NCBI GenBank assembly: GCA_017431365.1
Contig: JAFRLF010000001.1
Location: forward strand, 1-52,003
Length of the DNA: 52,003 bases
Direction: 5' to 3'
Source: Clostridia bacterium
GTDB lineage: Bacteria > Bacillota > Clostridia > Christensenellales > Aristaeellaceae
The notes under the pieces are model-generated. The model worked only from the letters and a program-made list of their open reading frames with translations. It was not told where the DNA came from and did not search any database. The translations under genes and the position numbers were made by a program. This document shows positions 295 through 36,723 of the stretch, in pieces; position 1 is the first letter of the stretch, and each line of letters opens with the position of its first letter.

Positions 295-1602
295 TTAAAA
301 ACTCTCATTGTCTAACAGAAAATCCCGGACGTTCATTGTCATAATTCCAACCTCATCGCGCTTCATTTTGATATTATCATTGATAAGAATCAGTTTCCTG
401 AATGAGTCTCCGATATGAAAAAATGAACGTTTTTCCTGATATTCCTTTAATTCATCCGGTATTGAAAACGCAGATTGAATGTAGATCAAATCACTGCCTC
501 TACTCGCCACAAAATCGACTTCCAACTGCTTTGTCGTATATATCGGGCGATTGTTTTTATCCATCCTATCCGTTTTTTCTCTGATTTCAACATTGCCTGT
601 ATTAACCCGATAACCCCTGTGACGCAGTTCGTTATAGATTATGTTTTCCATTATATGTGTCTCATTGATCTGTCTAAAATTAAGCCGTGCGTTTCTGATT
701 CCAATATCTTCAAAGTAAAATTTGTAAGATCCATTAATATAACGTCTGCCCTCAATATCAAAACGTCTGACACGATTGATCAAAAATGATTCTTCGAAAA
801 ACTCAAGGTAACGATTGATCGTATCGTCGGTCAAATTCCGATGCTTTTCAGCATTGAAAGTATTTGTAATCCGAGTGGGATTTGTGACGGATGCCATCAT
901 CGACGCTACCGTATCCAACAATTCTCCCAAATCCGCTGTATGCTGAACAATATTTCGTTCAATGATGTCCTTCAAATACACCTCTGTACAGAGTTCCCGA
1001 AGGTAACCCTCTTTCTGTTCATCGTCGCGCATCAGGGCGACAAGAGGAATACCTCCGGTCTGGACATATTCACGCCACGCCCTATCGCTTGGCGCGTCTG
1101 TTCCCTTCGCGTATTCCCCGTAGGTCAGAGGTAATATGTGAATTTCTTCTCCTCGTCCACGAAATTCAGTCAGAACATCGCTCGATAAAAAACGTGAATT
1201 GCTGCCCGTGACATATATATCTATGTTTTTCTTGTGAAGGTAACTGCTCAGCACACTTTCAAAAGAATCCAACTCCTGAATCTCATCGAGCAACAAATAG
1301 TAAGGTTTTTCCTCCTGAATACATGGCGACAAGTAATTCATAAAACGGTCTGCCGCGATTTTAACCGGACGACCATTCTTATAACGGGATTTGATTCCCA
1401 GCTTTTTTAAATCGTCCATGGAGTCAAAAGCAAAACGGATAATTTGATCCGGATGAATCCCATCAGCCAAAAGGTGTTCGTAAAACAGTTCCATCAGGAG
1501 ATATGATTTCCCAACGCGCCGAATCCCAGTAATCACCTTGATCAATCCATCGTTTTTACGGATAATCAGCCGCTTAAGATCCCTTTCTCTTGCAAACACC
1601 AT
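295..1602 (-). CDS. AAA ATPase of the AAA_14/DUF4143 family (ATP-binding protein with C-terminal PD-(D/E)xK-like DUF4143 domain)
   Basis: Walker A VITGIRRVGKSYLL, Walker B LLLDEIQ, C-terminal region typical of DUF4143 proteins. Low GC (~40%) relative to flanks. ORF track starts at 1632 (MLKR...); ATG at 1602 (MVFARERDL...) has a GAGAGG RBS 7 nt upstream and is preferred. Confidence 0.8.
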   Translation of the reverse strand: MVFARERDLKRLIIRKNDGLIKVITGIRRVGKSYLLMELFYEHLLADGIHPDQIIRFAFDSMDDLKKLGIKSRYKNGRPVKIAADRFMNYLSPCIQEEKPYYLLLDEIQELDSFESVLSSYLHKKNIDIYVTGSNSRFLSSDVLTEFRGRGEEIHILPLTYGEYAKGTDAPSDRAWREYVQTGGIPLVALMRDDEQKEGYLRELCTEVYLKDIIERNIVQHTADLGELLDTVASMMASVTNPTRITNTFNAEKHRNLTDDTINRYLEFFEESFLINRVRRFDIEGRRYINGSYKFYFEDIGIRNARLNFRQINETHIMENIIYNELRHRGYRVNTGNVEIREKTDRMDKNNRPIYTTKQLEVDFVASRGSDLIYIQSAFSIPDELKEYQEKRSFFHIGDSFRKLILINDNIKMKRDEVGIMTMNVRDFLLDNESF

Positions 1603-1811
1603 GTATGTACCTCTCGACAAACGTTTCAGCACTGTAACAGTTTTCGACTATATTATAGCAGATTCCGACTAAACTCGCAAGAATTTTCGAAAATTTCTAC
1701 AGTACTGAACCTGTATTCGACTAAATAATGGTTCAAACCTCCGGAGCTCTTAAAAAGCCCCAGAGGTCTTTTTAAAGGTGTGCTCATCCCATGACCGCCC
1801 TGTGTCCGGCA

Positions 1812-2435
1812 TCAGTCAAACAGAACCGTCCAAGTATCTGACCTGTACGCGTCAAAGCACATCCGGATCTGTTCTTCCGTGCATTTTTCCTCAGCCAGCG
1901 CCGGACATTCGTCAAGCGAAAAATACCGGCTCTCCGACGTCTCGCTGTTTGCGGCAAACTGACCTCCCATGCCTTCGCACAGGAAGAATATCTTTACCAC
2001 GCCATACGCGTAGGGCGGCGCGTTGTGCTTGTCCCTGTCCTGTACGGCGATGAGCCGCCTGACGCGGACGTCCAGTCCCGCTTCCTCTTTGACTTCTTTG
2101 ACGGTATTCTCCGCCGGCGACAGGTTGAACTCGCACCACCCGCCGGGCAGAGACCACTTTCCCCTCTCGCATACCAGCAGGATCTTCCCGTCCTCAAAGA
2201 TCGCCGCGCGCGTATCGATCTTCGGCGTCTGGTAGCCGACGTCTCCGCAGAACAGGCCCGTGACCTTGTCGGCGGACACGTCCGATTTCATCAGTATCAT
2301 TTCCGTCGCGATTTTCCGGATGCGCTGGTAGCGTTCCCGGTCGTATACGTCGCGTCCGTAGTAGAGCCCCGCTTGCGCAAGGCTCTGCAGCTCCTTCGCC
2401 CATTCCACAAGCCGATCCATCTTCCTCACCCGCAA
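1812..2435 (-). CDS. NUDIX hydrolase (with N-terminal Nudix_N_2-like extension)
   Basis: Nudix box GKWSLPGGWCEFNLSPAENTVKEVKEEAGLDV (GX5EX7REUXEEXGU); host-like GC; TTG start at 2435 with GGAGAAAGGGG RBS, alternative ATG at residue 6. Confidence 0.8.
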   Translation of the reverse strand: MRVRKMDRLVEWAKELQSLAQAGLYYGRDVYDRERYQRIRKIATEMILMKSDVSADKVTGLFCGDVGYQTPKIDTRAAIFEDGKILLVCERGKWSLPGGWCEFNLSPAENTVKEVKEEAGLDVRVRRLIAVQDRDKHNAPPYAYGVVKIFFLCEGMGGQFAANSETSESRYFSLDECPALAEEKCTEEQIRMCFDAYRSDTWTVLFD

Positions 2436-2452
2436 CCCCTTTCTCCGTTTCG

Positions 2453-3724
2453 TTATCCGAGCCCCTTCAGCAAAAAGACGTCGATTGGGATCAATTCGAT
2501 TTCCGGATGCTCGGGATGTTTTGACAGCGTTCCTTCGGAAGTCACGATAATCAGCCTCTTCAATTCAGGCATGGTATCAGACGCCTTCAGCAGATTCCCT
2601 ATCTCACGATCCGCGGATTGATCACTGATCTTCATACGGACCTGGATTGCGGCATACTCCGATGGAATGTAAAAGTCAATGTCCAGACCTGTTGCCGAAG
2701 ATTTGAGATAGTAAACTTCCTCGCCAAAGCGCCGCCTCAGCCAGACGGCAACGGCGTTTTCCAGCAGGGCGCTCATTTTGTCGGTCAGGAACAGATTCAG
2801 CAGCCCATTGTCCGCAAAGTAGTATTTCGGCGTCGTTTCGCGTTCAGCAAAGGCGGAAAAGTGATTGTATACCTTGAAAATCATATAGGAATCCATGATA
2901 AAGTTTATATAATCGATGATCGTATCTTTGCTGACCTTGATGCCTATGGCCTTCAGGTTGCCATACAGGTTCGCGTAAGAAACCTCGCGCATGACCGTTT
3001 CTGCGATCTTCTTAACCAGCAGCGCGACGGCGTTGCCGTTGCGCAGGTTATTTCGCGTAACGATATCGCCAAGGAGAATCTTCTGATAGACGCTGCTGAT
3101 ATATTCCCGTTTTGCCGGGTGTCTGACCGACTCCGGAAGGCCGCCCTGCACGAGGTATGCGTCGCACCTGGCGCGGATTCTCCCGTGAGCGACCGTTTCA
3201 ATCAATTCATCTTCACCATGGGGCGTTGCCGTGGCGTTCAGATACTCTTCAAAGGAGTAAGGCCAGATGTGTTTCTCCAGATAACGCCCTCCCAATGTCG
3301 ACCCAATTTCCCGAGAAAGCATTCTCGCGTTGCTCCCCGTAATCATTACGGATTCGTGCCGATCCGCCATTCTTCTGGCAAATTTCTCCCAGCCGGGAAT
3401 ATTCTGAATTTCGTCGAAAAAGAAATACCCTCGCTGATCGCTCATTTCGCTCTGAACCGCCAGAATATCGTTCAGATCCTCCGCCGTCATTTCAGTGAGA
3501 CGCTCATCCTCGAAATTGATATATATGATCCGATTCCAGTCTATGCCGTTTGCGACATGCCTCTTTACCAGGCCATACAGCAATGTGGATTTTCCGGCCC
3601 GGCGAAGCCCTGTCACAACCTGGTTGACATCTGGAAACAACGTGATTGTCCGGGGGATGATCTCGGCCCTGCGTATCACTTCATGCTGTTCCAGGATAAC
3701 CCTTTTGAGTAAATCATGCTGCAT
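2453..3724 (-). CDS. AAA ATPase of the AAA_14/DUF4143 family (second copy, diverged paralog of 295..1602)
   Basis: Walker A VVTGLRRAGKSTLL, Walker B FFFDEIQ, same domain order and length (423 aa) as the upstream copy; intermediate GC. Confidence 0.8.
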   Translation of the reverse strand: MQHDLLKRVILEQHEVIRRAEIIPRTITLFPDVNQVVTGLRRAGKSTLLYGLVKRHVANGIDWNRIIYINFEDERLTEMTAEDLNDILAVQSEMSDQRGYFFFDEIQNIPGWEKFARRMADRHESVMITGSNARMLSREIGSTLGGRYLEKHIWPYSFEEYLNATATPHGEDELIETVAHGRIRARCDAYLVQGGLPESVRHPAKREYISSVYQKILLGDIVTRNNLRNGNAVALLVKKIAETVMREVSYANLYGNLKAIGIKVSKDTIIDYINFIMDSYMIFKVYNHFSAFAERETTPKYYFADNGLLNLFLTDKMSALLENAVAVWLRRRFGEEVYYLKSSATGLDIDFYIPSEYAAIQVRMKISDQSADREIGNLLKASDTMPELKRLIIVTSEGTLSKHPEHPEIELIPIDVFLLKGLG

Positions 3725-12488: not shown

Positions 12489-13970
12489 ATGATAGAACGC
12501 TCAATTGAATATTACCAGGAGCTTGTCCACTCGTTAGCCGCCTTGCCGACAGAGGTAGAATGGGTTGAATTCAAAGTAAATAATAAAGATCCGGAACGGA
12601 TTGCGAAATATATCTCTGGATTAAGTAATGTGGCCACGCTTCTCGACCGGTCGAATGCCTACATTGTATGGGGAATTGAGAACGAAAGCCATAGAATCAT
12701 TGGCACAGATTTTGAATACAGAAAGGCGAAAAAGGGAAACCTGGAGTTGGAACTGTGGCTTGCGCAGCAAATCAATCCCAAGATCGGTTTTACTTTCCAT
12801 GAAGTACCTTATCGGGACGAGAGTGGAAGTATGATTCGTGTAACGCTGATTGAAATACCTTGTGCTGAAGGCGAACCGACCAGATATGGAAGTGTGGGTT
12901 ACATTCGTATCGGGAGCAATCTGAAACATTTATCAGAGTTCAAAGAGAAGGAAGCTGAACTTTGGAGAAAGTTTGACAAAACGCCCCTCGAAAAGAGAAT
13001 AGCCTATACAGAAGCCAGCGAGGATGACGTAGTTACTCTGTTGGATTATCCCGGTTATTATCGCAAACTGGGATTGCCGATTCCTGGTAATCGGGATAAG
13101 GTACTGCATGATTTGAGCGACGAGAAATTTATATATAAAAACGATGGTGGTACATGGGATATCACGAATTATGGTGCGTTAATGATTGCCGTAAATCTGA
13201 AAAAGTTTGAACGACTGAGCAAACGTGTCGTCCGCGTCATTCGCTATCCGGACAAATCACGCCTAGGTGGAATCAGCGAGCGTGAGTTTTCTTCCGGATA
13301 CGTGATTTCTTTTGAGGAGATTGTAACTTATATTATGACAGTCATACCGCAAGAAGAGATCATGGAAAGAGGAATTCGCAGACAAAAGTACAACTTCCCA
13401 GAAAGTGCTATCCGTGAATTATTGGCAAATACATTGGTTCATCAGGCATTGGATCAATATGGCACAAACCCTATGATAGAAATTTTTGTGGATAGAATCG
13501 AGTTCTCCAATGCAGGCGCTCCTCTGGTGGCAATCGAACGTATTATTGATACCGTTCCTCTGTCCAGAAATGAAAATATGGCGGGATTCATGCATCGCTG
13601 TGGTATTTGCGAAGAACGCGGCAGTGGCTATGACAAGATTATTGCTGCCACGAGTGCAGATGCATTATTGGCTCCGAAAATCGAAAACCAAAATAATCAA
13701 TTTACAAAAGTAACGCTGTTCTCCAAGGTTCCCTTTGAGTTGACAGCAAAGGAGGATCGCGTTCGTACCTGCTATATGTTCGCATGTCTTGCATTCGTCA
13801 ATTCGTCATCGATTTCCAATGCGGATATCCGGTCTGCGTTTGGATTGGAAGAGAGTGAAAAAGTCAAAGCGTCTCGGGTGATACGCGATACAATAAGCTC
13901 AAAACTGATCAAGCCTGTGGATCCTTCAACGGCGCCGAGATATATGAGATATGTCCCTTTCTGGGCTTGA
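12489..13970 (+). CDS. AlbA_2 (Schlafen-like) N-terminal domain / HATPase_c_4 C-terminal domain protein (putative ATP-dependent DNA-binding regulator)
   Basis: N-terminus EWVEFKVNN...ISGLSN (AlbA_2 signature), C-terminal HATPase_c_4-like region; low GC (~42%); AAAGGAGTG RBS. Confidence 0.7.
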   Translation: MIERSIEYYQELVHSLAALPTEVEWVEFKVNNKDPERIAKYISGLSNVATLLDRSNAYIVWGIENESHRIIGTDFEYRKAKKGNLELELWLAQQINPKIGFTFHEVPYRDESGSMIRVTLIEIPCAEGEPTRYGSVGYIRIGSNLKHLSEFKEKEAELWRKFDKTPLEKRIAYTEASEDDVVTLLDYPGYYRKLGLPIPGNRDKVLHDLSDEKFIYKNDGGTWDITNYGALMIAVNLKKFERLSKRVVRVIRYPDKSRLGGISEREFSSGYVISFEEIVTYIMTVIPQEEIMERGIRRQKYNFPESAIRELLANTLVHQALDQYGTNPMIEIFVDRIEFSNAGAPLVAIERIIDTVPLSRNENMAGFMHRCGICEERGSGYDKIIAATSADALLAPKIENQNNQFTKVTLFSKVPFELTAKEDRVRTCYMFACLAFVNSSSISNADIRSAFGLEESEKVKASRVIRDTISSKLIKPVDPSTAPRYMRYVPFWA

Positions 13971-20586: not shown

Positions 20587-21108
20587 TCATCGCGATTGCG
20601 CCTGCGTCGCGCTCCGAACGTTCATCATGTCTTCGAGCGCCTCGAGCATGCTCTCATCCGGCTGAATGAGCAAGAGCCGCGCCATCTCGTCGCCGTCCTT
20701 TTTATAGGCGACGGCGCGGGTCTCGTGCGGCGACTGCCTGAGGACGGCCTTGTCGTACGCCTGGGCGTTGCCATAGGCCTTGAATACGTCGTCCTTCAGT
20801 CCCACGGCGAGGATCTGTCCGGCGGGTATGTCGTGAATGACGCGCGTATGATCCCGGTAGACGAGCTCCACGACGAAATGCTCCCCGTCGGCCGTGTAGC
20901 GGTAGCTCTTGACGCTCAGGCGCATGCACAGCACCGCCTCGATGATTATTACCGCCCACACGGCAAAGCGGATATACCTGAGGCTCTCCACGCCGGCCAG
21001 CGCCTGCTCCACCCATCCAGCCAGCACGATCGACGCGACCAGCCCGGCGATGATCAGGACCCCCGCCGCGGGCCTGATGTTCTGGCCCTTCAGGAGCTGG
21101 GACGTCAT
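20587..21108 (-). CDS. Hypothetical membrane protein (2 TM + soluble domain)
   Basis: Two hydrophobic helices near the N-terminus; start overlaps the upstream gene stop (ATGA at 21105-21108). Confidence 0.5.
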   Translation of the reverse strand: MTSQLLKGQNIRPAAGVLIIAGLVASIVLAGWVEQALAGVESLRYIRFAVWAVIIIEAVLCMRLSVKSYRYTADGEHFVVELVYRDHTRVIHDIPAGQILAVGLKDDVFKAYGNAQAYDKAVLRQSPHETRAVAYKKDGDEMARLLLIQPDESMLEALEDMMNVRSATQAQSR

Positions 21109-21905
21109 GGCTGCGTCTCCTGCGCATCGCCGTCGGAAACAGCTTCGTCCTCCGGTATTTCAGCGCCGAAGGCCCCCGGCTCGAACAGGACCTGCATCTC
21201 GTGGATGACGGCCGCCGCCGTGTCCGGATTCTGGCTGAACGCCATGATGCAGACGTATTTGTCCGTCGTGTCGTAGGAGAAGGCGTCGGTCAGGCCCGTC
21301 ATGGGCGTGGCCTGAAGCGCGTACACGTGCTGCACGCCGGTGGCCTTTTCGTTCTCGTCGAGCTCGTCGAAGGTCACCTTGCCGAGGCTCCGGTCACCGG
21401 TGTAGAGAAGGCCGTCTTCAATGTAGCCGTCCAGCGGGACCAGCAGGCCCTGATCCGCCAGATCCGTCATCAGGGTTCGGCTGATCAGGTATATGTCGCC
21501 CTCCTGCGCCGCCAGAAGGACCATGAACTTCTGCGCGGCGTAATAGTCGTTTTCACTGGTGCCCTCGCCCGAATAATCCAGGCCGAGGATCTCCAATTCC
21601 TGAAGGGCGGGCTCGTAATCCTCCGCCTGAACGTCGACGCCCGCTTCGGCGTCGCGCTGGATTTCCCATTCCTTGCCCGCGGCCAACAGCTGAGCCTGGA
21701 CCTCTTTGGTCGCGTCCGTGGCCGTGTTGACGTACGCGCCCACCATTTCGATGTCGATGCGCCGGGCGTTCGGCGCCCGGTAGGCCGTGGTGGAGAACAA
21801 AAGGTTCCCCAGCAGCACCGCGACGATGGCGATTAGTCCATAGATATATTTGTTGTAAAACACATGATTGCGGAATTTCGCGCCGGTCATTTTCGTATTC
21901 GGCAA
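21105..21905 (-). CDS. Hypothetical membrane-anchored acidic protein
   Basis: Single N-terminal TM (YGLIAIVAVLLGNLLF), acidic extracytoplasmic region; translationally coupled to the next gene. Confidence 0.5.
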   Translation of the reverse strand: MPNTKMTGAKFRNHVFYNKYIYGLIAIVAVLLGNLLFSTTAYRAPNARRIDIEMVGAYVNTATDATKEVQAQLLAAGKEWEIQRDAEAGVDVQAEDYEPALQELEILGLDYSGEGTSENDYYAAQKFMVLLAAQEGDIYLISRTLMTDLADQGLLVPLDGYIEDGLLYTGDRSLGKVTFDELDENEKATGVQHVYALQATPMTGLTDAFSYDTTDKYVCIMAFSQNPDTAAAVIHEMQVLFEPGAFGAEIPEDEAVSDGDAQETQP

Positions 21906-22131
21906 AGCAATGCACCTCCTGAGTCGGGATATCTCCCCAATTTTTATTATACAGGGGGACGCTCAAATCGGCAATAGACTTTTTTCGGGAAAATGCCCAC
22001 GAAGCGCCCCGGATCGAAGCCCAAAGGCAAATCAGTCTCATTTGTCAAAATGTCTTTACAAATCCGCAACTTTCAATTATCATAAGATATACTGTAAACA
22101 CATCGCCCTTGTCCAAAGGAGCTGACGGCCC

Positions 22132-23046
22132 ATGAACAGCGAATTTCTCAAATACATCAACGACGAGGCTCAGCGACTGAGCGGCGTTTACGTGCCGCTG
22201 CGCGCCGGGTTTCTTCGGCAGCGCCTTGTCAGAAGAGTGCCCCTGTCCTGGCTGCGCCCCAACCCGGACGACGAGTTCTGCTCCCGCGATATCGGTCCCA
22301 ACGACGGGATCATCGCGCGATACGCGAGAGCCTACCGCGAAATGAAGCCGGCCACCGATCTGACCGACTTCATACCGGACGGCAGCTTCGATTCGGACAG
22401 CGTCCTCAACCCGCTGATCGTCCAGAGGATCCACCCGGGCGGGTACATGATCCTCAACGGGCATCACCGGTGGGCCGCGGCGCGCCAGGTCGGCCGAAAG
22501 ACCATACGCGTCTGCGTCGTCAACCTGACGCAGAAGCAGGACGTCCAAAAGGCCCTCGACCTGTCCAAAAACACGAAACGCGCGACGCTGGACCTGGACG
22601 AAGTCGTCTTTTGCGAAAAGGGCGCGCCCTGTGAAAAGGCACTCCCGTTCCCGCTGAGCCGCGTGTATCCGCAGCGCGTGCGGCTCGGCGTGCCCGCGCT
22701 GTTTCACCGCCTCGCCCAATGGGGCTACGACGTCTGGGTCTACAGTTCCGGGTACTATTCGATGGATGAAATCACCCACCTGCTCGGCCACCACCGCGCG
22801 CGCGTCACCTGCGCGGTCACTGGCACCGCGCGCAAGGGCCCTCGTGGCGCACGCATGGACGAACAGCTCGAGGCCATGCTCGCGCGCAAGTACACCCAGA
22901 CCGTCCACATCGACCAGAAATCCATCCTTTTCGTGGACAGCCAGTCCAGGCGGTTTGAGGAATACCTGTTGAGCGGAACGGACGAATCCTGGAGTCGGGA
23001 GATCATCGGCCTCATGGGAAAGAAGGATGTGCATGCGAACAGCTGA
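22132..23046 (+). CDS. ParB/Srx-like (ParB N-terminal NTP-binding/nuclease-fold) domain fused to a HAD-like domain
   Basis: N-terminal half: LRPNPDDEF...PLIVQRIHPGGYMILNGHHRWAAARQVGRKTIRVCVV (ParB GxxR-box analogue). C-terminal half paralogous to the next gene, with a DLDEV motif-I-like start; AAAGGAG RBS. Confidence 0.6.
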   Translation: MNSEFLKYINDEAQRLSGVYVPLRAGFLRQRLVRRVPLSWLRPNPDDEFCSRDIGPNDGIIARYARAYREMKPATDLTDFIPDGSFDSDSVLNPLIVQRIHPGGYMILNGHHRWAAARQVGRKTIRVCVVNLTQKQDVQKALDLSKNTKRATLDLDEVVFCEKGAPCEKALPFPLSRVYPQRVRLGVPALFHRLAQWGYDVWVYSSGYYSMDEITHLLGHHRARVTCAVTGTARKGPRGARMDEQLEAMLARKYTQTVHIDQKSILFVDSQSRRFEEYLLSGTDESWSREIIGLMGKKDVHANS

Positions 23047-23536
23047 ACCGCAGAAGAAAATGCGCGTCTCCTTCGACCTGGACGAGGTGCTCTTCGTCTC
23101 CCCCGCGAACCACAAGACCGAGCCGCTGCCGCCCTGGCCGCTGCGCCTCATCTTCCGGGAAAACCTGCGCCTCGGCACGCCGGACCTGATCAACGAGCTG
23201 CAGCGCCTGGGGTACGACGTCTGGGTCTACACCTCCTCCTTCCGGACGGAGAGATACATCCGCACGCTGTTTCGGCTCTACGGCGTCCGGTTCGACGGCA
23301 TCGTCAACGCGGAGAGGCATCTTCGGGAGGTTCAGCGCAACAGAAAGACTCTCCTCCCGCAGAAGATGCCCAACTGGTACAAGATCTCCCTGCACGTGGA
23401 CGACGAGGAGGTCATCTGCTCCTCGGCGCGCCAGTACGGGTATGAGGCGTACCGCCTGGACGCCCAGGACGACGATTGGAAGGACAAGATCATCGCCCGC
23501 GCCGCGCAGATCAAAAGGGCGCGGGGCTTTGAATAG
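23033..23536 (+). CDS. HAD-like hydrolase domain protein (paralog of the C-terminal domain of 22132..23046; possible 5'-nucleotidase-like)
   Basis: SFDLDEVLF (motif I DxDxV), LGYDVWVYTSS (motif II-like), HVDDEE (motif IV-like DD). Shares LDLDEV... and LGYDVWVY blocks with the upstream protein. GAAGGA RBS 5 nt before the ATG at 23033 (ORF track 23027 overlaps the RBS). Confidence 0.55.
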   Translation: MRTAEPQKKMRVSFDLDEVLFVSPANHKTEPLPPWPLRLIFRENLRLGTPDLINELQRLGYDVWVYTSSFRTERYIRTLFRLYGVRFDGIVNAERHLREVQRNRKTLLPQKMPNWYKISLHVDDEEVICSSARQYGYEAYRLDAQDDDWKDKIIARAAQIKRARGFE

Positions 23537-26829: not shown

Positions 26830-26859
26830 CGCCTCCGGACGACGTCCCCCGGCAAAAAA

Positions 26860-26890
26860 CAGTGCCGCGCAGCCCATATGCGCGGCACTG
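26860..26890. terminator. Bidirectional Rho-independent terminator between convergent glycosidase and ABC substrate-binding genes
   Basis: CAGTGCCGCGC-AGCCCATAT-GCGCGGCACTG perfect 11-bp stem flanked by A-run upstream and TTGGTGTTT downstream. Confidence 0.7.
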
Positions 26891-26922
26891 TTGGTGTTTA
26901 TGCGGGTTTCTCAGGAAGGAGA

Positions 26923-35340: not shown

Positions 35341-36723
35341 TCAATCAAACAGGCTATTTAGCGCAATAAGTATTATTTTCTCATCTGTATTCTTTTTTTC
35401 AAATCCTGATCTGGAGAAAAAACCATATTTATATGGATGCAACGGCGTCTTCTCTACCTGTTCGATCTCCTTCCGGATCATGCTGTCCGTCAGAATGCCT
35501 TTTCGGAATTTGACTTCATAGAAAATATAACCCTCCGGGTCCAGCGTCACAACATCAAACTCGCCATTAGTCCTGGTTTCCTTATCGTCATACCAGTATT
35601 TTCCGATCTTGTCAAATATCTCAGGCAACAGGCCCCGGCGGTTTTGTCGGATCAGGTATTGCCTGCAGATGACTTCAAACGACTGCGGTACGAACTGACT
35701 TTCAAAGTCTTCCTGAATATAGCGATCCCAGAAGACCTCCCGATCCATCACGCTGAGTTGCGAGGCGTACCGAAAGATATATCTGTAAAAAAAGCGCGAC
35801 AACTGATCCGTTATAACATATCCCGCTTTCCGGCGATTGTCTTCATCATTGATCGGGACACGCTTCTCAACGACTTCCATACGGATCAGCCGCTCCAGTA
35901 CATCCGCCAAAGTTGGACTGGATGAAACATGAGATTGCGAAAGGATATCGCTGAATCTGGTATATCCCCTTGAGAGCGTCTCAAACACTTCGTTTGCGTT
36001 GGTTATTTTCGATACCTCAGATTTGAGAAACATCGTCACTTCATTTTCCAGCCGCGCGCCGCAAGAGGCGATCAATTCAATTATATTTTCCCGAACCGAT
36101 TTGTTACAGTCGATCAATCGATTATAATAGGGAATTCCTCCAAACACGCTGAACAATCTCACTTTGTCTTCCGGTGAAAAATCAGGGTAAAAAAGGGCTG
36201 ATTCCCAATAATCCATGGGCTTGAGATCAATCGTCAGGTCTATCCTTCCATATAAAGGGTTTTCCCTCATGAGAAGAGACTTCATGACATCCACAAAAGA
36301 ACCACAGATGATCAGTTTAAGCCTGGAAACCTCCCGGTACTTGTCGATCAACGCCTGAATAACGCTGTCCAAACCGGAAACACTGTCTCTCAAATAGGAG
36401 AACTCATCCAGCACCAGGACGATTTCTCTGTCCCTCGAGGCTTTAAAGATATATTCAAGACATGCCTCCATGTTTCCAAACGCCAGCGGCGGAAATTCAA
36501 AGGCCTCAGAAATCAATTCAGACAAGTTCGCAGCGTTGCTCAGCTCTGCCGTCTGCCTGCACTCATAATATATGCTTTTGACACCGCTTTCCCTCAGGCA
36601 CTGCTTGATCAGTTCGCTCTTGCCCACACGACGACGTCCATATACCAGCGCGGCGGCAAAACCCTGTCTGTCAAGCATTTTATGAAGGCGTTTGCGTTCC
36701 TCTTCCCGGCCAACGAATTTCAT
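35341..36723 (-). CDS. AAA ATPase (ATPase_2/archaeal-ATPase-like with DUF234 C-terminal domain)
   Basis: Walker A YGRRRVGKS, Walker B LVLDEFSY; low GC (~45%) relative to flanks. Confidence 0.75.
   Translation of the reverse strand: MKFVGREEERKRLHKMLDRQGFAAALVYGRRRVGKSELIKQCLRESGVKSIYYECRQTAELSNAANLSELISEAFEFPPLAFGNMEACLEYIFKASRDREIVLVLDEFSYLRDSVSGLDSVIQALIDKYREVSRLKLIICGSFVDVMKSLLMRENPLYGRIDLTIDLKPMDYWESALFYPDFSPEDKVRLFSVFGGIPYYNRLIDCNKSVRENIIELIASCGARLENEVTMFLKSEVSKITNANEVFETLSRGYTRFSDILSQSHVSSSPTLADVLERLIRMEVVEKRVPINDEDNRRKAGYVITDQLSRFFYRYIFRYASQLSVMDREVFWDRYIQEDFESQFVPQSFEVICRQYLIRQNRRGLLPEIFDKIGKYWYDDKETRTNGEFDVVTLDPEGYIFYEVKFRKGILTDSMIRKEIEQVEKTPLHPYKYGFFSRSGFEKKNTDEKIILIALNSLFD

Follow-up and report, generated by a model that had tools for sequence, protein, structure and literature searches.

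A ParB/Srx-HAD fusion protein and its stand-alone HAD paralogue form a two-gene unit in rumen and gut Clostridia

Two overlapping genes of a rumen Clostridia bacterium raise the question of what a ParB/Srx-type fold does in one polypeptide with a phosphatase-type fold, next door to a free copy of the latter. They lie on the forward strand of contig JAFRLF010000001.1 (assembly GCA_017431365.1), in a stretch of 52,003 nucleotides that was analysed as a whole and is called the window here. Gene 1 encodes a protein of 304 amino acids, and gene 2 encodes a smaller protein directly downstream of it (Table 1). From the letters alone, a first-pass annotation had read gene 1 as a ParB/Srx-like domain joined to a haloacid dehalogenase (HAD)-like domain, gene 2 as a paralogue of the HAD-like part, and the pair as a candidate for a novel two-gene system in nucleotide processing. 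Both folds and the pairing are borne out by the results below, and the domain architecture and the two-gene module are undescribed. The proposed function is replaced by a tentative reading of the pair as a nucleotide-coupled phosphatase in phospho-signalling.

Domain architecture of the two proteins

At the level of the fold, gene 1 belongs to the ParB/Srx superfamily. The Pfam family ParB_N (PF02195) matches residues 85–142 with 29.8 bits, above the gathering score of 26.3 (E = 6e-7), and the same annotation is precomputed for nearly all homologues of gene 1. The true start of the fold is upstream of the Pfam match, at about residue 36, where an invariant Box I-like HPNPxDEF segment is the counterpart of Box I in ParB. 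The AlphaFold2 model of gene 1 (predicted local distance difference test score, pLDDT, 87.4; predicted template modelling score, pTM, 0.82) has the three-dimensional ParB/Srx fold in its N-terminal domain. The motif NGHHRW is kept in 80/80 orthologues, with G110 and R113 invariant. When residues were aligned with PDB entries, NGHHRWAA of gene 1 stood against DGHHRWAG in SerK (5x0j) and in a Pyrococcus homologue (1vk1), and against AGERRWRA in ParB. Judged by its residues, this P-motif is of the SerK/SbnI/sulfiredoxin kind (phosphotransfer, ATP/ADP-type) and not of the ParB CTPase-clamp kind.

Known proteins of this fold were compared with gene 1. SerK (T. kodakarensis TK0378, PDB 5X0B) and SbnI are free serine kinases that have the (D/N)GHHRW motif in common with it, but the HAD domain stands in gene 1 where these kinases have a C-terminal serine-binding domain. 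Unlike SerK and SbnI, the pair has no cysteine or siderophore pathway context. NCBIfam gave weak matches of gene 1 to parB_part, SerK, Noc and SbnI. The SerK model NF053625 scored 25.5 bits against a cutoff of 380 and was matched only at positions 45–91 of 244 (47 positions), the SbnI model NF033589 scored 19.8 bits against 350, and the ParB model TIGR00180 scored 37 bits against 58. Orthology to SerK or SbnI was ruled out, because the core motif region alone matches. With the canonical CTPase DNA clamps ParB, Noc and KorB, gene 1 shares the ParB_N fold, a PNPxxxxF Box I-like segment and a GxxRW Box II, in which GERRxRA of ParB becomes GHHRWAA. In contrast to these clamps, gene 1 has neither a helix-turn-helix nor a C-terminal dimerisation domain, residues 148–296 forming the HAD fold instead. 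It has no ParA neighbour and is neither origin-proximal nor plasmid-borne; no ParA-type family was found among the Pfam families that recur most in a scan of the 146 closest neighbours. A ParB-like role in DNA segregation was ruled out by the missing helix-turn-helix, ParA and plasmid link. Sulfiredoxin differs in being single-domain, and the catalytic Cys of its GCHR is a His in the GHHR of gene 1.

In the model, a single helix follows the ParB/Srx domain and leads to strand 1 of the HAD domain. The HAD fold of the C-terminal half of gene 1 and of gene 2 is certain. The two are Rossmannoid HAD domains that align by BLASTP with 28% identity over 145 amino acids (E = 9e-19), a paralogy far above chance. 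The four HAD motifs, taken as defined in PMC8069645, are almost unchanged in gene 2: motif I FDLDEVLF and motif II W[VI]YTS occur in 70/70 orthologues, motif III LPQK.P in 66/70 and motif IV LH[IV]DDE in 69/70. Gene 1 is more variable. Its motif I is [LM]DLDE[VT] in most orthologues, with the nucleophile position D154 invariant and D156 kept in at least 90%. Motif II reads W.[YF][ST] across the orthologues and motif III TG..[RK][KR] with a basic pair; motif III was assigned by position alone, in a loop of low pLDDT. In motif IV, D261 is invariant and the second acid position is occupied by N, R, D, A, Q, S or K.

Assigning a HAD subfamily by sequence alone failed, every match being below threshold. 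PF00702 reached 14.5 bits on gene 2 against a cutoff of 26.4, the C-terminal domain of gene 1 had no Pfam or TIGRFAM HAD match at all, and PF03031, PF08645 and PF25109 matched no protein of the window. The HAD domain has no cap and, within the 167 amino acids of gene 2, carries only a conserved flap of about 30 residues, and its structural neighbours include MDP-1, SCP1, UBLCP1, TIM50, Lem4, the T4 Pnkp phosphatase, GmhB and HisB-N. The subfamily leans to the type III/C0 group. No hidden Markov model of the known cap-less C0/type III HADs (MDP-1, the FCP/SCP (NIF) phosphatases of the polymerase C-terminal domain, the T4 Pnkp 3'-phosphatase, GmhB) reached threshold on gene 1 or gene 2. Compared with these, the family has features of its own, namely the conserved flap E..LPFPL....ERLRLG.P and an invariant His, Trp and Tyr, and the pairing of a fused with a free paralogue also sets it apart. 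An exhaustive profile search across 1.84 billion representatives returned only 653 clusters, which consist of ParB-HADs of about 295 amino acids and many stand-alone HADs of 150–170 amino acids with classical DLDDTL or DLDETL motifs. The DLDETL motif is presumably like that of FCP/SCP, and a literature search on that string gave no result. The distant family members had sub-threshold matches to NIF (E = 0.007–0.04), PNK3P (1e-3), HAD_PNKP (0.018) and also HAD-IIIC. No specific sequence or structure likeness to a HAD-type 5'-nucleotidase family was found, nor a cap that could enclose a nucleotide. Neither protein can be placed in a curated HAD subfamily, and this holds for the nucleotidases too.

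These results bear out part of what the first-pass annotation had read from the letters. Each of the motifs it had quoted occurs in gene 1 or gene 2 where it should, and the GxxR box, the DxDxV motif I of both HAD domains and the DD motif IV of gene 2 are conserved as described above. Where it had called the HAD domains phosphatase- or 5'-nucleotidase-like, the HAD fold holds and the nucleotidase likeness does not. Its remark that the architecture was not an annotated one needs a similar division: the fusion is undescribed, and Pfam and NCBIfam detect the ParB part only, but both genes carry generic NCBI names ('ParB-like nuclease domain-containing protein' for gene 1 and 'HAD family hydrolase' for gene 2).

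A survey that re-evaluated the ParB fold as a general nucleoside triphosphate (NTP)-binding module (PNAS 2025) was based on Pfam domains, and it concluded that many bacterial 'single-domain' ParB-fold proteins of at least 300 amino acids must or probably do carry unrecognised domains. The ParB/Srx-HAD protein with its obligate-looking paralogous partner is a concrete case of such a domain. Among the ParB-fold fusions in the text and supplements of that survey, a HAD or other hydrolase partner is absent. Literature searches on a ParB and HAD fusion, on partner-switching with ParB or HAD, and on HAD with STAS found nothing relevant. Since the HAD domain is invisible to Pfam, the family merits profile models of its own.

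The two-gene unit and its genomic partners

To count loci, one genome per GTDB species was scanned; 263 encoding loci were found, and the synteny counts use the best 80. Gene 2 lies directly downstream of gene 1 on the same strand in 70 of these 80 loci. The other ten are 'solo' copies of gene 1, several of which are second copies in genomes that also bear the pair (RGIG5665, RUG340, RGIG2590). When metagenome loci were searched from gene 2, gene 1 was adjacent in 63 of the 70 informative ones and gene 2 stood alone in seven. The gene order is inverted in one metagenome locus (L121, 5860–7338), where the stand-alone HAD precedes the ParB-HAD, with divergent STAS and c4unk genes upstream (c4unk is a family of hypothetical proteins described below). 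All three domains occur in one polypeptide in two independent natural fusions, P0003 (472 amino acids) and P0034 (457 amino acids). These results indicate that gene 1 and gene 2 form a real two-gene unit, as the first-pass annotation had supposed for the pair, and the unit recurs in hundreds of gut Clostridia. Two other joined proteins probably owe their structure to assembly or frameshift errors and not to a true architecture: in P0304 (244 amino acids) a YjjG-like nucleotidase fragment is joined to the C-terminal half of gene 1, and in P0123 (290 amino acids) a C-terminal fragment of gene 1 is joined to gene 2 through an out-of-frame stretch.

At least 793 homologues of gene 1 of about 300 amino acids were found, with 40–63% identity. 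The parts are not equally constrained: gene 2 has a median pairwise identity of 66.9% across 69 species, the ParB domain one of 49% and the HAD domain of gene 1 one of 45.5%. The family is kept across at least 263 species-level genomes, which belong to Clostridia of the rumen and gut (Lachnospiraceae, Butyrivibrio, Pseudobutyrivibrio, Christensenella-like bacteria, Oscillospiraceae), several of them cultured, such as Butyrivibrio sp. INlla16 and Lachnospiraceae AC2029 and AD3010. In the best 80 genome loci only one match lies outside the Clostridia. It is L072 (CAMOEE010000045.1), a contig of a rumen-type metagenome that was binned as Treponema sp., and it reflects either horizontal transfer or a binning error.

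No neighbour is common to all loci. However, genes of partner-switching signalling recur near the pair. STAS, c4unk, MatE-HATPase_c_2 or HAMP-SpoIIE-HATPase_c_2 genes were present within 3.5 kb in 18 of the 80 GTDB loci, mostly in the same operon, but in only about six loci in the comparison zone of 3.5–10 kb, which is twice larger. The 18 loci are spread over 7 of the 36 clades of gene 1 and show at least five arrangements: kinase, gene 1, gene 2, c4unk, STAS and PP2C in this order; gene 1 and gene 2 at the front; c4unk directly upstream; STAS downstream; and a divergent STAS and c4unk pair. The association was replicated in about 11 of 80 metagenome loci, of which only 33 are at least 5 kb long. 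It is also seen for gene 1 alone (L006 and L010, each with a divergent STAS and c4unk pair) and for gene 2 alone (L131, where STAS and c4unk are placed as in L121). The 71 genes nearest on the upstream side include 9 with HATPase_c_2, 8 with histidine-kinase HATPase_c, 3 response regulators and 2 with SpoIIE; histidine kinases and response regulators are over-represented in this set.

Two kinds of partner gene deserve a description. The c4unk family has at least 1907 members of 175–225 amino acids, all annotated 'hypothetical' (for example L036:7104-7718, L010:8943-9479 and L006:6955-7494). In every locus examined, c4unk adjoins a STAS gene of about 98 amino acids within a partner-switching operon. 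Its invariant residues include E45, W62, N97 and WD..E.S. It has no Pfam match, and sequence and profile searches of the PDB gave no significant match. The c4unk protein may be a non-kinase switch partner of STAS. The second kind is a protein of 580–650 amino acids, in which a MatE/MurJ-like multi-pass membrane domain is fused to a C-terminal HATPase_c_2 (RsbW/SpoIIAB-type serine kinase) domain (L031:1781-3553, L011:8070-9908, L178:615-2360). It stands at the operon head, often directly upstream of the ParB-HAD gene.

Possible function of the module

The best reading is that of a heteromeric HAD phosphatase, coupled to a nucleotide, that would handle a bulky phospho-substrate in phospho-signalling; this reading is tentative, possible rather than probable. 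On this view the locus encodes a phosphatase module of two subunits, which are at times joined in a single polypeptide. The catalytic subunit would most likely be gene 2, as a cap-less (C0-like) HAD phosphatase of small size that would use an Asp nucleophile and Mg2+; its four motifs are intact and under very strong constraint. The HAD domain of gene 1, the more divergent paralogue, would probably pair with gene 2, and it is predicted to be packed rigidly on the ParB/Srx-fold domain. The latter may bind a nucleotide and then either gate the phosphatase or phosphorylate the same substrate that the HAD sites dephosphorylate. With its open active site and no cap, the enzyme seems suited to a phosphoprotein or another bulky substrate, and C0 HADs typically take macromolecular substrates (PMC8069645). 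The module would act in phospho-signalling, its preferred genomic partners being a STAS antagonist, an RsbW-type serine kinase, a PP2C phosphatase, c4unk and histidine kinases. The tie of the pair to partner-switching signalling is plausible but unproven.

Several points weigh against this reading. The window itself has no STAS, SpoIIE, HATPase_c_2 or c4unk gene, and about 75–80% of the loci, the window included, have no signalling gene nearby. Partner-switching operons with c4unk and STAS commonly occur without the pair, so the pair is an optional companion of these operons and not a core part. Together, the loci without signalling genes and the operons without the pair mean that the link is facultative, and it could be regulatory rather than mechanistic. 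Some C0-like HADs (GmhB, KdsC, HisB-N) use small molecules. As for the nucleotide, 17 of the 28 ParB-fold proteins purified in the PNAS 2025 survey bound no NTP in vitro, and its authors consider the nucleotide specificity of ParB-fold domains not predictable from sequence or from AlphaFold3.

A bolder version of the signalling idea appears unlikely: the ParB-fold domain would be the writer, either as a serine kinase of STAS or by charging the neighbouring HAD Asp, much as the N-domain of a P-type ATPase charges its P-domain, and the HAD domains would be the erasers that remove the phosphate. It would supply kinase and phosphatase functions to the minimal loci, where STAS and the non-kinase c4unk occur with gene 1 (L006, L010) or with gene 2 (L131). 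If true, the module would be without precedent both as a protein kinase of the ParB/Srx fold and as a HAD phosphatase shown to act in bacterial partner-switching.

The SerK motif of gene 1 also fits a small-molecule kinase and phosphatase pair, in which the SerK-like domain would phosphorylate serine or some other hydroxyl compound as a free metabolite and the HADs would hydrolyse or transfer the phosphate, for example to buffer a phosphorylated intermediate. This is unlikely, although it keeps some weight. The match to SerK is limited to the short core segment of the model, and the substrate domain of SerK is replaced by the HAD domain. A kinase fused to a phosphatase and acting on one metabolite would run a futile cycle. 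Moreover, the loci have no serine, cysteine or other consistent metabolic neighbours, and there is no cap for enclosing a small substrate. A somewhat poorer candidate is a nucleotide-gated scaffold, with the ParB-fold domain as a non-catalytic NTP switch that dimerises on nucleotide and one or both HADs as pseudo-enzymes for protein binding. The N-domain of ParB is a known NTP-dependent dimerisation switch, many ParB-fold fusions bind CTP, ATP or GTP, motif IV of gene 1 is degenerate, and the structural neighbours include TIM50, an inactive protein with the HAD fold. On the other hand, the catalytic residues of gene 2 (FDLDEVLF, W[VI]YTS, LPQK, DDE) are held across 70 species, which argues for catalysis, and the nucleophile D154 of gene 1 is invariant too.

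Polynucleotide end-healing in the manner of T4 Pnkp is very unlikely. T4 Pnkp resembles gene 1 in that a phosphotransfer-type NTP-binding domain is fused N-terminally to a cap-less HAD phosphatase, and the kinase-like domain and the HAD 3'-phosphatase would together repair RNA or DNA ends. But its kinase domain has the P-loop fold rather than the ParB/Srx fold, and the relevant matches are all sub-threshold and no better than those to other HADs. Repair context is missing at the ParB-HAD loci, with no ligase, Hen1 or nuclease neighbour in 160 loci. To our knowledge, no ParB/Srx domain phosphorylates nucleic acids, which also counts against this explanation. The nucleotide depletion or phage defence that the first-pass annotation had suggested was not supported. 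A two-gene anti-phage or toxin system that depletes or modifies nucleotides would suit the compact module, and defence and conflict systems, as well as an ATPase toxin, are reported to contain ParB-fold domains. Nevertheless, PADLOC on six local proteins gave only a marginal MTase_II match (E = 0.0063) over the ParB region. Among 50,697 phages and 72,556 plasmids, tblastn found no homologue of gene 1, and IMG/VR, scanned by pattern, held only three ParB-motif fragments and no full-length homologue. The neighbours are housekeeping or signalling genes rather than defence islands, and the high conservation of gene 2 is the opposite of arms-race diversification. A defence role is highly improbable on these grounds.

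If the STAS/RsbW/PP2C link of the proposed phosphatase module is functional, partner-switching in abundant gut anaerobes would gain a new enzymatic layer, or a new output, and the module would offer a tractable case of a SerK/Srx-type nucleotide site coupled to an aspartyl-phosphatase. If it is not, the pair is still a well-delimited uncharacterised enzyme family. Nothing yet shows any unprecedented chemistry.

Layout and surroundings of the locus

The features of the locus are listed in Table 1. The start of gene 2 may be ATG 23027, giving 169 amino acids, or ATG 23033, giving the 167 that NCBI chose. An AAGGA Shine-Dalgarno sequence at 23022–23026 favours ATG 23033, so that gene 2 overlaps gene 1 by 14 nucleotides. 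Because no terminator-like hairpin occurs between gene 2 and the one listed, the pair is probably co-transcribed here with the 559-amino-acid gene and the DUF5722 gene. The window as a whole was scanned with Rfam, with a riboswitch or leader 5' of gene 1 in view, and no family attained its threshold.

Table 1. Features of the ParB-HAD locus in window coordinates (aa, amino acids)
Feature	Position	Strand	Basis or remark
Sigma-70-like promoter candidate TTTACA-17-TATCAT	22055..22083	+	Consensus match only, 10/12; upstream of gene 1, in 226-bp divergent intergenic region
Gene 1 Shine-Dalgarno AAGGAG	22117..22123	+	Read from sequence, 8-9 nt 5' of ATG 22132
Gene 1, ParB/Srx-HAD fusion protein, 304 aa, MBR0462780.1	22132..23046	+	Open reading frame, homologues, AlphaFold2 model; stop codon 23044-23046
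ParB/Srx-fold domain, predicted nucleotide-binding, aa ~36-132	22237..22527	+	
Box I-like RPNPDDEF, gene 1 aa 42-49	22255-22278	+	
P-motif NGHHRW, gene 1 aa 109-114	22456-22473	+	
HAD-like domain 1 of gene 1, aa ~148-296	22573..23019	+	
Gene 1 motif I LDLDEV	22588-22605	+	LDLDEVVF = aa 153-160
Gene 1 motif II WVYSS, aa 202-206	22735-22749	+	
Gene 1 candidate motif III TGTARK	22819-22836	+	
Gene 1 motif IV HIDQ, aa 259-262	22906-22917	+	Second acid varies among orthologues
Gene 2, stand-alone HAD phosphatase-like, 167 aa, MBR0462781.1	23033..23536	+	Alternative ATG 23027
Gene 2 motif I FDLDEVLF, aa 14-21	23072-23095	+	
Gene 2 motif II WVYTSS, aa 64-69	23222-23239	+	
Gene 2 motif III LPQKMP	23354-23371	+	
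Gene 2 motif IV HVDDE, aa 121-125	23393-23407	+	
Hypothetical protein, 559 aa	23575..25254	+	Strong GGAGAGGAGGA ribosome-binding site
DUF5722 protein, 521 aa	25264..26829	+	Pfam PF18989, E 4e-94; last gene before terminator-like hairpin
Terminator-like hairpin, first one 3' of gene 2	26858-26892		Terminator scan

The 559-amino-acid protein has no Pfam or NCBIfam match, and sequence and profile searches of the PDB gave no significant match for it. Another genome also has a DUF5722 gene near the fused homologue P0034, at a distance of two genes on its upstream side. On the other side, two overlapping minus-strand genes without family assignment, 20587–21108 (173 amino acids) and 21105–21905 (266 amino acids), lie between tgt and gene 1. 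The 173-, 266- and 559-amino-acid proteins and the DUF5722 protein had no tblastn match in the 80 GTDB loci, so these neighbours are lineage-specific. An antisense open reading frame opposite gene 1 (22045..23193, minus strand, 382 amino acids) was rejected as a high-GC artefact; the conservation and the domain matches belong to the plus-strand proteins. Long antisense reading frames are frequent in this high-GC window, and in the clustering of reading frames they produced a spurious cluster of 'conserved neighbours', which are artefacts.

The window is otherwise ordinary chromosome, with rarA/mgsA, asd, tgt, a sugar ABC transporter, fucose isomerase, GH88 and rhamnosidase genes. Three low-GC islands, at 295–3724, 12489–13970 and 35341–36723, have a GC content of 0.44–0.49, compared with about 0.62 elsewhere in the window. 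Encoded in the islands are two AAA_14/DUF4143 ATPases in tandem, a Schlafen AlbA_2 and HATPase_c_4 protein, and an ATPase_2/DUF234 protein. These islands look horizontally acquired or defence-like, and appear unrelated to the ParB-HAD pair.

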